A stretch of 46,070 nucleotides of DNA, taken from the NCBI GenBank assembly GCA_963422205.2, contig CAXMWX010000002.1, positions 1-46,070 of the forward strand, written 5' to 3'. The notes beneath the pieces are model-generated. The model ran no database searches, was not told where the DNA came from, and saw nothing but the letters and a program-made list of their open reading frames with translations. The position numbers and the translations under genes are program-made. The stretch is from Gammaproteobacteria bacterium (lineage in GTDB: Bacteria > Pseudomonadota > Gammaproteobacteria > Eutrophobiales > Eutrophobiaceae). Positions 7,665 to 42,188 of the stretch are shown one piece after another (the first letter of the stretch is position 1; the number at the start of each line of letters is the position of its first letter).

Positions 7665-9101
7665 GTGAACACATTCTACTACGGCGATTGCCTTGAAATC
7701 ATGGCTGCCATGCCGCCTGACAGTATTGATCTGATCTACCTTGATCCACCGTTTAATTCCAATCGTTCCTACAACACCATATACAAAGACAGCACCGGCC
7801 AGGCGCTGCCAGAACAGGCCGAGGCATTTTGCGATGTCTGGGAACTCACCGAGGAGCGGGAGCGGGCGATCGCGGATTTGCCCGTGTTGATGCGCCAGCA
7901 CGGCATGGATGACAGCACCGCCCGGTTATGGGAATTATGGATACCAGCACTCAGGCATACCCAGCCCCGCCTGCTGGCCTATTTGTCGTACATGACCGAG
8001 CGGCTTCTTATCATGCGCTCACTGCTGAAGGCCACGGGCAGCCTGTATTTGCATTGCGACCCGACGGCCAGCCATTATATCAAGATGATCATGGATGTTG
8101 TGTTTGGGCATCAGAATTTTCAGAACGAGGTAATATGGCATTACAGAAAATGGACAGGGAAGGCGAAGAGATTTCAAAGACTGCACGATATAGTATTTTT
8201 TTATTCTAAAACCGACCAGTATAATTTTAATGTTTTGTATACGGACTACACGGACAAATCATTAAAGAGAAAGCAAAACTATCATACCAGGATAAAAGGT
8301 GATGATGTTTACGTCACCTCAGTGAATGAAAAAGGCGTGAGGGAGAACGATGTCTGGCAGATACCGATCATCAACTCCCAGGCCAAAGAACGCCTCGGCT
8401 ATCCCACGCAAAAACCCATCGCCCTGTTAAAGCGCATCATACTGGCCTCCAGCAACGAAGGTGATCGGGTGCTGGACCCCTTCTGTGGTTGTGCCACCAC
8501 CATCGCCGCCGCCCATGAGCTTAACAGACGCTGGATCGGCGTTGACATCGCCTATCATGCAATAACAAAAGTCGTTAGATCAAGGTTGCACGATCAATAT
8601 GGCTTGAGTGAAAACATAGCCTATGAAATAGACGGCATCCCGAAAACCAGAGAAGCAGCGATTGATCTGTGGAATAGGGATTCCTATCAGTTCCAACGCT
8701 GGGCGGTTGAGCGGGCGGATGGCTTTGTCTCCGCCCAGCGCGCCCATGATGGCGGGATTGACGGGCGCATTTATTTTCACACCGGCGGTGGGAAAATGGG
8801 TTCGATGATCGTCGAGGTCAAAGGCGGGGCGCAAGTCGGCATCGGGGTGGTCAGAGACCTTCGGGGCGTTATGGAGCGGGATGGTTGCGAGATGGCGGGA
8901 TTGATCGTCAGAGAAGCACCGGGGGATACGCAAAGGCGCAATTTTCAACGGGAGATGGGCGAGGCCGGATTTATAGAGATCGATAAGCGTCAATTCGCCA
9001 GAATGCAGCTTCTGACGCTCGATGAGGTTATCCGGGGGAGAAAATTCACCACGCCGTTTGCCGAGGGGCTGGGAGAGAGACAGGAGCAACTGACGCTTTA
9101 A
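7665..9101 (+). CDS. Beta-class (N4/N6) DNA methyltransferase fused to a C-terminal Mrr-like PD-(D/E)xK nuclease domain (copy A)
   Basis: Catalytic motif IV LDPPF near the N-terminus, YPTQKP, SAM-binding LDPFCGC late in the chain (beta order); C-terminal YQFQRWAV...DGGIDG...VEVKGG. Confidence 0.85.
   Translation: MNTFYYGDCLEIMAAMPPDSIDLIYLDPPFNSNRSYNTIYKDSTGQALPEQAEAFCDVWELTEERERAIADLPVLMRQHGMDDSTARLWELWIPALRHTQPRLLAYLSYMTERLLIMRSLLKATGSLYLHCDPTASHYIKMIMDVVFGHQNFQNEVIWHYRKWTGKAKRFQRLHDIVFFYSKTDQYNFNVLYTDYTDKSLKRKQNYHTRIKGDDVYVTSVNEKGVRENDVWQIPIINSQAKERLGYPTQKPIALLKRIILASSNEGDRVLDPFCGCATTIAAAHELNRRWIGVDIAYHAITKVVRSRLHDQYGLSENIAYEIDGIPKTREAAIDLWNRDSYQFQRWAVERADGFVSAQRAHDGGIDGRIYFHTGGGKMGSMIVEVKGGAQVGIGVVRDLRGVMERDGCEMAGLIVREAPGDTQRRNFQREMGEAGFIEIDKRQFARMQLLTLDEVIRGRKFTTPFAEGLGERQEQLTL
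7675..8125 (+). repeat. Inverted repeat block 1 (451 bp), partner of 41728-42178
   Basis: Alignment by eye to the reverse complement of 41728-42178: 8 mismatches, no gaps. Confidence 0.95.
8383..8711 (+). repeat. Inverted repeat block 2 (329 bp), partner of 41091-41419
   Basis: Ungapped alignment by eye: 4 scattered mismatches plus a 32-bp diverged patch (8443-8474). Confidence 0.93.
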
Positions 9102-9125
9102 CGGCCAAACGTAAACAGGCCGCCT

Positions 9126-9282
9126 TCAGGCACAAGACAGGCGGATGCCTGTGCCAGGCAAATACGCGCTCTTTGCCTTGAGATCCGCCGCCGTCAAGGT
9201 ATGTTCGGCCAGCCAGCTATCGGGACATGTCAGTGTTAATTGCCCGTTGTTCTTGCCGGGGGAAGCCGGGCATAGTGGCATG
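9126..9282 (-). pseudogene. ppx: Decayed duplicate of the ppx 3' end, with an internal deletion
   Basis: 9158-9240 matches 11102-11184 (76/83 nt) and 9248-9282 matches 11374-11408 (32/35 nt); translates LTLTCPDSWLAEHTLTAADLKAKSAYLPGTGIRLSCA* with the stop at the same offset as in ppx. Confidence 0.88.
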
Positions 9283-9298
9283 ACTGCCCAGCTGTTAA

Positions 9299-39803: not shown

Positions 39804-39897
39804 TGGGTGGCGGCCCTCGGTGTTGCCTGATTTTCTCTGCATTATCCTTAATGCATGGCGTATAATCGTTACACCAAATTTTTAAGGGGAGGCGGAC

Positions 39898-40338
39898 ATG
39901 CAGTATTTACATACGATGGTGCGGGTTAGGGATCTGGATGCCTCGCTGGCATTTTATTGTGAGCATCTGGGGCTGGTGGAGATCAGCCGCATGGAGCATG
40001 AGCAGGGGCGTTTTACCCTGGTCTTTCTGGCCGCACCGGCAGATGCCGAGGCCGCCCGGCAGCACCAGGCGCCGATGATTGAATTGACCTATAACTGGGA
40101 GCCGGAGGACTATGGCGGCGGGCGGAACTTCGGGCATCTGGCGTATCAGGTTGAGGATATCTATGCGACCTGCAAACGCCTGGCCGATGCTGGCGTTGCG
40201 ATCAATCGCCCGCCACGGGATGGCCACATGGCCTTTGTGCGCTCGCCCGATAATGTCTCCATTGAGCTGCTGCAAAAAGGCGAGGCCCTGCCGCCAAGAG
40301 AACCCTGGCAGTCAATGCAGAATCAGGGCGAGTGGTAG
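39898..40338 (+). CDS. gloA: Lactoylglutathione lyase (glyoxalase I) family protein
   Basis: [28 protein letters not shown]. Confidence 0.88.
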
Positions 40339-40697
40339 GCATAGCTGTTCTTTCACTCCTCAATATTATCAGATTGACCGAACCGCCTCTGGCCGCCTGT
40401 CTTTTCCCTGACCATGCCAACAGGTTAAGGTCTTGTTCAATAAAGAGCTATTTACACAGTATTTGCTCAGGATACATAGAAGATAATTTATCAAAGGAAT
40501 GATACACATAAATCCGCAAGGCTGGATTAGCCTGTCTTAACCCGTTTATACGCGGTATTTATTTGTTTTTTGGCAGGCTTTTTATTTTCGCACTGGCCAG
40601 CTTGCTTGCCATTAAACAATATTTGAGACACTGCCTCGCTTACTTGTTTTTACTTTATTTTTAGAAAGCATTTTTTAGTCATGATTTTGAGGAATTT

Positions 40698-42188
40698 CTA
40701 GCTAAACGGCATTTTTTTTTGGCGAACGCCTTTTCCTTCTGCAAACGGTGTATTGAATTTACCATTTTTCACTATTTCGTCTACTGTTAATAATTGCATT
40801 CTGGGCAGGGCTTTCCCCTGTATGGTAATAAATCCGGCTGCTCCCATTTCCCTTTGAAAATTACGTGCCTGGGTTTTTCCCAAAGGTCCTCTTACAATTA
40901 AACCTGCCATTTCACAGCCGTCTTTTTCCATTGTTCCTCGCAATTCTCTTACCACGCTGGGATTAACCTTTTCACCGCCTTTCACTTCCAATATCATGGA
41001 ACCGTGCTGTTTGTTATCCGTTGCGAAGTAAATCCGGCCATCGACTCCACCATCGTGTCCACGTTTTGTTGTGACAAACCCGTCTACCATCTCAACCGCC
41101 CAGCGCTGGAACTGATAGGGATCCCTATTCCACAGATCAATCGCTGCTTCTCTGGTTTTCGGGATGCCGTCTATTTCATAGGCTATGTTTTCACTCAAGC
41201 CATATTGATCGTGCAACCTTGATCTAACGACTTTTGTTATTGCATGATAGGCGATGTCAATGCCGATCCAGCGTCTGTTAAGCTCATGGGCGGCGGCGAT
41301 GGTGGTGGCACAACCGCAGAAGGGGTCAAGTACAATGTCTCCCTCGTTACTCGATGCCTGTATGATGCGCTTTAACAGGGCGATGGGTTTTTGCGTGGGA
41401 TAGCCGAGGCGTTCTTTGGATGAATTGTTGATCTTATCTACATCCCACACATCATCTACAGGCTTGCCGTATTGCATAGCCTCGTTCAGGTATCGCTGTA
41501 CTCTCCGCCCGCCTCCTGCATCAGAGAGAACATACCGTCTACCATCATCATCAGTATGTACCTTTTGTTTTCGGGTTTTTATATACTCCTCTTCGCTTTC
41601 CCATGGGATCATATATGAGTCAAAAGCAGGTTTTTCAGTTTTGCTATAGTAAAAGATCACATCGTGTCTGGCGTTAAAACGACTTTTTAATTTCGCATTC
41701 CATCCAGAGTAATGCCACACGATTTCATTCTGAAAATTCTGATGCCCAAACATAACATCCATGATCATCTTGATATAATGGCTGGCCGTCGGGTCGCAAT
41801 GCAGATACAGGCTGCCCGTGGCCTTCAGCAGTGAGCGCATGACCAGAAGTCGCTCGGTCATGTATGACAAATAGGCCAGCAGGCGGGGCTGGGTATGCCT
41901 GAGTGCTGGTATCCATAATTCCCATAACCGGGCGGTGCTGTCATCCATGCCGTGCTGGCGCATCAACACGGGCAAATCCGCGATCGCCCGCTCCCGCTCC
42001 TCGGTGAGTTCCCAAACATCGCAAAATGCCTCGGCCTGTTCTGGCAGCGCCTGGCCGGTGCTGTCTTTGTATATGGTGTTGTAGGAACGGTTGGAATTAA
42101 ACGGTGGATCAAGGTAGATCAGATCAATACTGTCAGGCGGCATGGCAGCCATGATTTCAAGGCAATCGCCGTAGTAGAGTTTATTCAT
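40698..42188 (-). CDS. Beta-class DNA methyltransferase fused to an Mrr-like nuclease domain (copy B)
   Basis: Same architecture as copy A: LDPPF, YPTQKP, LDPFCGC, DGGVDG...LEVKGG. Confidence 0.85.
   Translation of the reverse strand: MNKLYYGDCLEIMAAMPPDSIDLIYLDPPFNSNRSYNTIYKDSTGQALPEQAEAFCDVWELTEERERAIADLPVLMRQHGMDDSTARLWELWIPALRHTQPRLLAYLSYMTERLLVMRSLLKATGSLYLHCDPTASHYIKMIMDVMFGHQNFQNEIVWHYSGWNAKLKSRFNARHDVIFYYSKTEKPAFDSYMIPWESEEEYIKTRKQKVHTDDDGRRYVLSDAGGGRRVQRYLNEAMQYGKPVDDVWDVDKINNSSKERLGYPTQKPIALLKRIIQASSNEGDIVLDPFCGCATTIAAAHELNRRWIGIDIAYHAITKVVRSRLHDQYGLSENIAYEIDGIPKTREAAIDLWNRDPYQFQRWAVEMVDGFVTTKRGHDGGVDGRIYFATDNKQHGSMILEVKGGEKVNPSVVRELRGTMEKDGCEMAGLIVRGPLGKTQARNFQREMGAAGFITIQGKALPRMQLLTVDEIVKNGKFNTPFAEGKGVRQKKMPFS
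41091..41419 (-). repeat. Inverted repeat block 2, partner of 8383-8711
   Basis: Alignment by eye of the reverse complement. Confidence 0.93.
41728..42178 (-). repeat. Inverted repeat block 1, partner of 7675-8125
   Basis: Alignment by eye of the reverse complement: 443/451 identical. Confidence 0.95.

Follow-up and report, generated by a model that had tools for sequence, protein, structure and literature searches.

A mosaic pair of inverted methyltransferase-nuclease fusion genes with unrelated target-recognition segments, probably shaped by conversion of their shared framework

The stretch of DNA analysed here (hereafter the window; 46,070 nucleotides of contig CAXMWX010000002.1 from a Gammaproteobacteria bacterium, assembly GCA_963422205.2) carries two inverted genes, copies A and B, each encoding a beta-class DNA methyltransferase (MTase) joined to a C-terminal Mrr-like nuclease domain. 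A repeat search of the window detected two pairs of inverted repeats within these genes, the first with a length of 496 nt and 95% identity (7666-8161 and 41692-42187) and the second with 394 nt and 90% identity (8383-8776 and 41026-41419), and repeats of such length and identity are far beyond chance. The shared parts of the genes, blocks 1 and 2, enclose in each copy a variable segment located where the target-recognition domain (TRD) of a beta-class enzyme is expected. No further copies of block 1 or block 2 were found within the window. The coordinates of all features are collected in Table 1.

Table 1. Features of the two fusion genes and of their immediate surroundings in the window (aa, amino acids; dS, synonymous divergence).
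Feature	Position	Strand	Evidence
Copy A, beta-class DNA MTase with C-terminal Mrr-like nuclease domain, 478 aa, GTG start	7665..9101	+	PF01555 8.2e-48; Mrr_cat 21.1 bits (cutoff 21); NA-iREase1 25.8 bits (cutoff 27)
A constant block 1, N-terminal MTase framework, motifs IV onward	7675..8125	+	451 bp, 8 mismatches to B; enclosing codons 4-154 dS 0.075
A variable segment, A-type TRD cassette	8126..8382	+	Unalignable to B; TRD type found in 249 proteins
A constant block 2, motifs X, I-III and linker, with unconverted relic patch 8443-8486	8383..8711	+	329 bp, 16 mismatches to B
A PD-(D/E)xK nuclease domain, old divergence from B	8712..9101	+	65% aa identity; D...EVK aligns to B D383/E401/K403
Copy B, beta-class DNA MTase with C-terminal Mrr-like nuclease domain, 496 aa, ATG start	40698..42188	-	PF01555 3.1e-49; Mrr_cat 27.2 bits (cutoff 21)
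B constant block 1	41728..42178	-	Repeat search and alignment to A
B variable segment, B-type TRD cassette	41420..41727	-	TRD type found in 830 proteins
B constant block 2, relic patch 41316-41359	41091..41419	-	Repeat search and alignment to A
B PD-(D/E)xK nuclease domain, D383, E401, K403	40698..41090	-	Fold match, residue conservation
Truncated N-terminal remnant of a different, CcrM-like beta-class MTase, 118 aa, just upstream of B	42253..42609	-	MTase models matched over first ~100 positions only
Second islet next to A	9155..11195	-	D12-class (Dam-like) MTase 10061-11002 and small open reading frames 9628-10068 and 9299-9625

The limits of the blocks, their mismatches and the dS values were obtained by DNA alignment and codon-aware comparison of A and B. 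The differences in block 1 were found at positions 7763, 7838, 7988, 8003, 8009, 8010, 8049 and 8100 of copy A, and those in block 2 were clustered, with 13 of the 16 lying inside a 44-bp patch (8443-8486, codons 262-276) whose synonymous sites are saturated and in which the amino acid is altered in only one of 15 codons. A and B do not differ at all in the first 60 bp 3' of the TRD (8383-8442), the divergent patch lying further in. Codons 4-154 displayed 97.8% nucleotide identity and codons 277-349 displayed 98.6% (dS 0.022); synonymous-difference fractions in the variable segment, the nuclease domain and the patch were 0.69-1.0. The stretches that separate the blocks (257 bp in A, 308 bp in B) are unalignable, with 47% nucleotide identity in a forced alignment and 23-26% amino acid identity, and the 3' parts presented a synonymous-difference fraction of ~0.97 and 65% amino acid identity. 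Upstream of codon 4 the sequences are unrelated. The near-identical stretches end at codon 4, at both edges of the variable segment and near the MTase/nuclease junction. The proteins are 74% identical as a whole and 96%, 26%, 94% and 65% identical in the N block, variable segment, middle block and C-terminal domain, respectively. Both open reading frames (ORFs) are intact. The original prediction, made from the letters of the window, had described the two copies and their shared blocks, which were reproduced to the base, as well as the unrelated middle segments and diverged 3' ends, which both kinds of alignment recovered; the relic patch in block 2, the islet structure of both loci and the housekeeping character of the 33 kb between them go beyond it.

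An assembly or polishing artefact, in which consensus cross-talk made the blocks near-identical, is scarcely credible. A 450-bp inverted repeat can mislead assemblers on the orientation of the segment between the copies, and the apparent frameshift of prmA in the window indicates that the assembly may hold errors. Nevertheless, the blocks contain 8 and 16 differences with the reading frames intact, cross-mapping is unable to turn ~60-70% identity into 98%, and biological conversion typically leaves just such a sharp mosaic, one that respects codons and retains a relic patch.

Both proteins were assigned to the beta-class DNA methyltransferase family by PF01555, at 163.7 and 168.4 bits (cutoff 26.7), and both present the permuted motif order of this class, with DPPF (motif IV) at residues 27-30, followed by the variable segment and by DPFCGCATT (motif I) at residues 271-279 in A and 288-296 in B. 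The AlphaFold (AF2) model of B (predicted local distance difference test, pLDDT, 83; predicted template-modelling score, pTM, 0.83) matched the folds of EcoP15I Mod, M.BceJIV, CcrM, M.RsrI and M.MboIIA with E values of 1e-15 to 1e-17, and residues ~183-250 form an inserted sub-domain in it. In a 120-row family alignment the framework was found to be well conserved, whereas residues ~160-250 were variable, with lengths of 72-154 aa. The variable segment occupies the TRD position of beta-class enzymes; its placement between the catalytic motif and the S-adenosylmethionine-binding motif, as the original prediction had it, was borne out by the motif order and by the hypervariability of the segment across the family. 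Since the TRDs are unrelated, the specificities of A and B are expected to differ, and the two enzymes most likely act on different DNA sequences; the earlier claim to this effect is kept as an expectation. The DPPF motif, which we take to point to N6-adenine over N4-cytosine, suggests that both MTases are probably N6-adenine enzymes.

A and B are, to judge from their sequences, old paralogs or separate acquisitions, because synonymous sites have reached saturation in the nuclease domain and the 44-bp patch. In the framework blocks the two genes are recent copies of each other, with a dS of 0.02-0.08. The mosaic is rather probably the result of RecA-type conversion of the framework between old, horizontally acquired, solitary paralogs with unrelated TRDs, and not the product of a dedicated shuffling device. 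Conversion between the inverted copies would have homogenised the MTase framework wherever homology sufficed, in at least two or three tracts with patchy repair, and the limits of these tracts would be the gene start, the two edges of the non-homologous TRD and the MTase/nuclease junction, the 44-bp patch being left as an unconverted relic of the old divergence. Over evolutionary time, the same conserved flanks would allow replacement of the TRD by homologous recombination. Framework homogenisation is favoured because an imported cassette should bring its own flanks, yet a patchwork is seen. RecA needs some tens of identical bases, and the recombination substrate between A and B is ample. Gene conversion as the process, and its direction, we infer from the pattern of differences in the two genes.

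The C-terminal domains of both proteins matched Mrr_cat (PF04471) above the curated cutoff, although the match of A was borderline. The isolated domain was modelled with a pLDDT of 80, and its best fold match was AspBHI (E 7.8e-4), followed by MspJI (E 1.4e-3, template-modelling (TM) score 0.58), EcoO109I and the FokI cleavage domain (E 5.5e-3); all fold matches were PD-(D/E)xK nucleases, with modest scores. According to the secondary structure of the model, the (E/Q)xK motif lies on strands 2 and 3. Among the 126 proteins of the framework family to which the window's genes belong, D383 and K403 were found in all and E401 in 119 (replaced by S in six and by Q in one). Similarly, a second Mrr-type family presented D and K in all of its 124 proteins, with Q as the middle residue in 89, S in 33 and E in 2, which is the canonical Mrr D...QxK pattern. 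The description of A and B as fusions of an MTase with an Mrr-like nuclease was therefore upheld by the Pfam matches, the fold of the C-terminal domain and the conserved catalytic residues.

The nuclease is predicted to be active, given the residue conservation, the alternative fusion of the same core to an HNH nuclease and the solitary occurrence of the genes. The likeliest mechanism for A and B is that of a one-gene restriction-modification (RM) enzyme resembling Type IIC. A short site would be bound and methylated by the MTase core with its TRD, and DNA near unmodified sites would be cut by the tethered Mrr/FokI-like domain once it had paired with that of a second molecule, as it does in FokI. 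The shared TRD would set the specificity of both methylation and cleavage. A different function is possible but doubtful, in which A and B would be orphan MTases with a regulatory or epigenetic role, their nuclease-fold domain serving only DNA binding or oligomerisation, with no restriction. The genes are solitary, relatives of B carry, where named at all, only DNA methyltransferase names, the 'inactive REase' Pfam family NA-iREase1 was matched just below its cutoff, and S stands at the E position in some relatives. On the other hand, across 250 proteins D and K never vary and E/Q seldom does, an HNH nuclease takes the place of the Mrr-like domain on the same MTase-TRD core in other members, as expected of a working cleavage module, and NCBI names one member 'restriction endonuclease' and one 'HNH endonuclease'.

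The protein search with B returned at least 8000 matches at E <= 1e-10, with full-length relatives of 50-62% identity in Chloroflexota, Acidobacteriota, Cyanobacteria, Nitrospinota, Poribacteria and others. When the variable segments of the 126 proteins, a sample enriched for the A and B TRD types, were grouped by average-linkage identity, 37 clusters at >=40% identity were obtained; single-linkage BLAST merged A and B through shared end motifs. The search with the C-terminal domain yielded 1107 cluster representatives at E <= 1e-3 and 343 at E <= 1e-10, and the domain was C-terminal in nearly all of 150 among the matches listed. Searches with the segments only defined the A-type and B-type protein sets counted in Table 1. 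In A-type proteins the segment was the best-conserved part, with 64-81% identity to A, whereas identity in the N block was usually 0.31-0.48; B-type TRDs were 61-75% identical to B. Both types were found in Mrr-type fusions, in HNH-endonuclease fusions and in shorter and longer forms, the HNH fusions (PF01844/PF14279 in Pfam terms) accounting by regular expression for 31 of 131 A-type and 14 of 134 B-type proteins. The B-type TRD was also observed in proteins of 610-771 aa with the MTase domain as sole Pfam match (P0280, P0289, P0297, P0307-P0309, P0316, P0326, P0346 and P0348-P0355), which by their sequences appear to be further C-terminal partners of the same MTase-TRD core. A covariation of the nuclease domain with the TRD type was considered and rejected, the identity of this domain to B being 0.45-0.53 in proteins with a B-type TRD and 0.47-0.58 in others. 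A candidate second example of paired copies, on plasmid AP017966.1, was likewise discarded, since its two matches are 100% identical, lie within a 4.8-kb segmental duplication and present no mosaic.

Separate trees for the modules, which the original prediction had proposed as a check, were found to be incongruent between framework and TRD, while the nuclease type stays with the framework. On a FastTree framework tree of 333 rows and 232 columns, from which the TRD and nuclease had been excluded, the A/B label required 45 changes in 244 rows against 80.9 +/- 4.2 in shuffles, a rate that is biased by the choice of rows for an A- or B-type TRD. The Mrr/HNH label required one change in 272 rows against 36.1 +/- 1.3 in shuffles. 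In a 40-row IQ-TREE, three framework clades (support 99, 99 and 82) each contained both TRD types in equal numbers, and the window's A and B were sisters with a support of 99. A single clade of A-type rows was rejected by the approximately unbiased (AU) test (delta log-likelihood 795, p 9e-5), also when the window's two rows were left out (delta log-likelihood 668, p 1e-65); the 10 HNH rows already form one clade in the tree used for this test. These results suggest that the segment, unlike the nuclease, recombined with frameworks many times. Because TRD type is uncoupled from the framework in the trees and the AU test, with the same type occurring in different framework groups, TRD exchange through conserved flanks is real in this family on evolutionary timescales, and that part of the original prediction stands. 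Concerted evolution of the framework among co-resident paralogs would give the same tree pattern as cassette movement, and at the level of sequence both amount to one recombination viewed from its two sides.

In a second history of the window's pair, codons 4-349 were first homogenised, by conversion or partial duplication, and one TRD was then swapped in this lineage for a foreign allele through the flanks. The frequency of TRD replacement across the family, as seen in the framework tree and the AU test, agrees with this history, as do the nearest TRDs of both copies, which for A occur in other frameworks (in the HNH fusion P0123 the TRD identity is 0.80 and that of the N block 0.38) and for B in the second Mrr-type family (0.72-0.75); the similar mismatch densities in blocks 1 and 2 would also permit a single homogenising event. 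However, donor differences are expected beside an imported TRD, and positions 8383-8442 are identical in A and B. Furthermore, the segment searches found no donor above ~80% TRD identity, and in six relatives from other genomes (five loci in metagenome-assembled genomes (MAGs) and one plasmid) the flanks share 65-86% identity with B, exact matches spanning only 8-23 nt. We regard the replacement of a TRD in this lineage as unlikely and prefer framework conversion.

Both loci are low in GC (0.47-0.50 in the 1-kb bins 8001-11000 and 40001-42000, compared with 0.52-0.63 in other bins), A being located between convergent ppk and ppx and B between gloA and fba. The 33 kb between the copies contain ppx, dsbD, aroQ, accB/C, purH/D, hup, hisH/B, hemF, rpiA, ilvA, zapA, pepP, two ubiH-like genes, glnS, purC and gloA, and beyond the pair come pst/phoU/ppk at one end and fba/pyk/pgk at the other. 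A and B are independent low-GC islets among housekeeping genes. No recombinase, integrase or res-like domain was detected in the 46 ORFs scanned in the window, and no silent or extra TRD cassettes were found in its 46 kb. No helicase (res) gene adjoins A or B and none is conserved in five related loci, and no neighbour was common to the family loci among the five MAG loci and two plasmids inspected. Promoter scans around A and B performed no better than shuffles.

The original prediction had read the pair as a candidate diversification system in which the blocks act as homology arms for TRD exchange; the reading considered here is that these arms are selected and that the two loci form a switching or diversification system reshuffling specificities within the cell. 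It is true that near-identical flanks (451 bp on one side, 60+225 bp on the other) bracket the TRDs exactly, that recombination between inverted copies inverts the 33 kb without deletion, and that swaps would presumably be harmless as both site types would already be methylated. Nevertheless, this reading was abandoned as very unlikely. Only two cassettes exist, both in full-length genes 33 kb apart, with neither silent copies nor a recombinase in the window; a swap of two active TRDs yields no new specificity, and the pair can only swap or lose specificity. Moreover, the loci are independent islets among essential genes, whereas known switching systems have clustered cassettes. As for the blocks as selected arms, gene conversion is the simpler explanation, and block 2 retains the unconverted 44-bp relic.

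Several observations weigh against framework conversion between two active one-gene RM enzymes. One long conversion followed by the import of a foreign TRD fits the pair as well, given that the mismatch densities of block 1 (8/451) and of block 2 outside the patch (3/225) are not clearly different. The TRD trees partly follow the framework family (14 and 13 changes versus 37 and 29 in shuffles), the strongly supported branches of the 40-row tree force a minimum of only 8 changes, and the framework tree shares the bias in row selection already mentioned, in addition to being a FastTree of 232 columns. A contig scan with the peptide patterns HYIKMIM and HQNFQNE found 9 loci, the best with 53% identity, and no close relatives. 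Regarding the nuclease, a profile search of PDB sequences with the C-terminal domain gave no matches at E <= 10, the fold matches are modest (TM 0.55-0.59), the Mrr_cat score of A is right at the Pfam cutoff (21.1 versus 21), and S replaces E in two distant relatives. Finally, methylated motifs, nuclease activity and expression are all things that we infer.

The closest known parallel is provided by the Type III mod genes of Helicobacter pylori. As described by Furuta and Kobayashi (2012), TRDs move there between non-orthologous genes at different loci through conserved motif-coding flanks, by homologous recombination with no dedicated recombinase, and the TRD and non-TRD trees are incongruent (PMC3467074). 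Like the A/B family, the mod genes encode beta-class MTases whose TRD lies centrally, between motifs IV-VIII and motifs X-III, and their TRD types cross gene groups with incongruent trees. Unlike mod, A and B are solitary, have no res partner and carry a C-terminal nuclease domain of their own. The flanks of A and B are also long and near-identical (451 and 329 bp), compared with 8-117 bp of weak similarity described for mod, and the evidence within the window's genome points to framework homogenisation, with no observed TRD move; the exact runs of 8-23 nt in the relatives fall in the range reported for Helicobacter mod genes (PMC3467074). Membership of Type III (Mod and Res) was rejected, as no res helicase gene lies next to A or B.

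Type IIC and IIG enzymes have in common with A and B the presence of an MTase and a PD-(D/E)xK domain in one polypeptide. By Pingoud et al. (2014; PMC4081073), BtgZI is described as a Type IIC enzyme with an N-terminal MTase and a C-terminal PD-QxK (Mrr-type) domain, and a change in the recognition module of Type IIC/IIG enzymes alters restriction and modification together; most of them, however, have an N-terminal nuclease and a gamma-class MTase, and BtgZI is alpha-class. A and B differ in being beta-class, with the TRD inside the MTase domain. Membership of Type IIG was therefore rejected (C-terminal nuclease, beta-class DPPF MTase, internal TRD), although A and B may work like a Type IIC enzyme.

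The C-terminal domain resembles those of MspJI/AspBHI and FokI, in which an Mrr-like PD-(D/E/Q)xK module is likewise attached to a separate recognition domain. These enzymes cut at a distance after oligomerisation; they differ in having SRA-like or helix-turn-helix readers and no MTase, and MspJI and AspBHI need modified DNA. In phase-variable Type I hsdS inversion systems and shufflons, inverted repeats flank specificity segments as they do in A and B, but the cassettes are clustered and partly silent and a site-specific recombinase is present, neither of which was found in the window. A dedicated specificity-switching system was accordingly rejected as a class for the pair, given only two copies in the whole window and 46 scanned ORFs that lack recombinase and integrase domains.

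With respect to precedents, two candidates were dismissed on the portions of their texts available, HVO_A0006 (PMC4389544) because it concerns N-terminal Type IIG nuclease fragments in another architecture, and the work of Iyer et al. (PMC4738411) because it concerns other fusions. The open literature yielded no account of a family of beta-class MTases that end in an Mrr or HNH domain, or of their TRD modularity, in a search that left REBASE and subscription journals outside. For separate loci with beta-class MTase genes, TRD exchange that needs no recombinase has been published before (PMC3467074).

The surroundings of the two genes presented further observations. The RM-like islet that directly follows A is bounded by a 97-bp direct repeat (9155-9251 and 11099-11195, 87% identity) duplicating the 3' end of ppx. 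Its D12-class MTase matched PADLOC MTase_II with 5e-110, and its two small ORFs, adjacent and in different frames, gave no significant Pfam, NCBIfam or PADLOC match; the Atlas linked them weakly to an R.HinP1I-like cluster (score 0.94, with the family on 27% of its members), and together they may represent a restriction gene broken in two. In the remnant upstream of B the motif reads DPPC, with 35% identity to B over 37 aa, which suggests that a resident MTase gene at this locus gave way to, or was interrupted by, a second one. Elsewhere in the window, prmA appears to be split across two frames, with 20882-21259 (+) corresponding to positions 2-103 of the PrmA model and 21214-21552 (+) to positions 115-202, and is either a pseudogene or the result of an assembly indel error. 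Three tandem copies of a ~102-bp unit, 74-77% identical, occupy 32740-33053 at the 5' end of the long pepP ORF (32787-34703) and would encode a repetitive N-terminal extension of its product. A stand-alone EVE (PUA-like) domain protein (31194-31673, minus strand; PF01878, 2.4e-58) is encoded among the housekeeping genes.

The A/B pair is a new example of a known way in which enzymes change specificity, and the window is a clean natural example of conversion tracts bounded by a non-homologous cassette. The fusion family is very large and apparently uncharacterised, its genes being at present labelled methyltransferases only. A broader proposal, offered tentatively and with considerable doubt, is that the superfamily (beta-class N6-adenine MTase, internal and exchangeable TRD and C-terminal Mrr or HNH nuclease) may be an unrecognised, abundant class of solitary, single-chain RM enzymes in which one cassette would set both methylation and cleavage, and in which conserved frameworks would share dozens of circulating cassettes. 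In that case the genome would already be protected at both sites, so co-resident paralogs of the A/B kind could trade framework and cassette DNA through RecA without restricting themselves, and a homogenised framework might allow mixed oligomers. Provided that the nuclease domains are active, the family would be a large, untapped store of compact (~480-500 aa) one-gene RM enzymes, with specificity located in a short, naturally swappable cassette (37 types in 126 proteins of one framework family). The family would then bear on the diversification of methylomes and phage barriers outside Helicobacter and would be a source of enzymes with new specificities.

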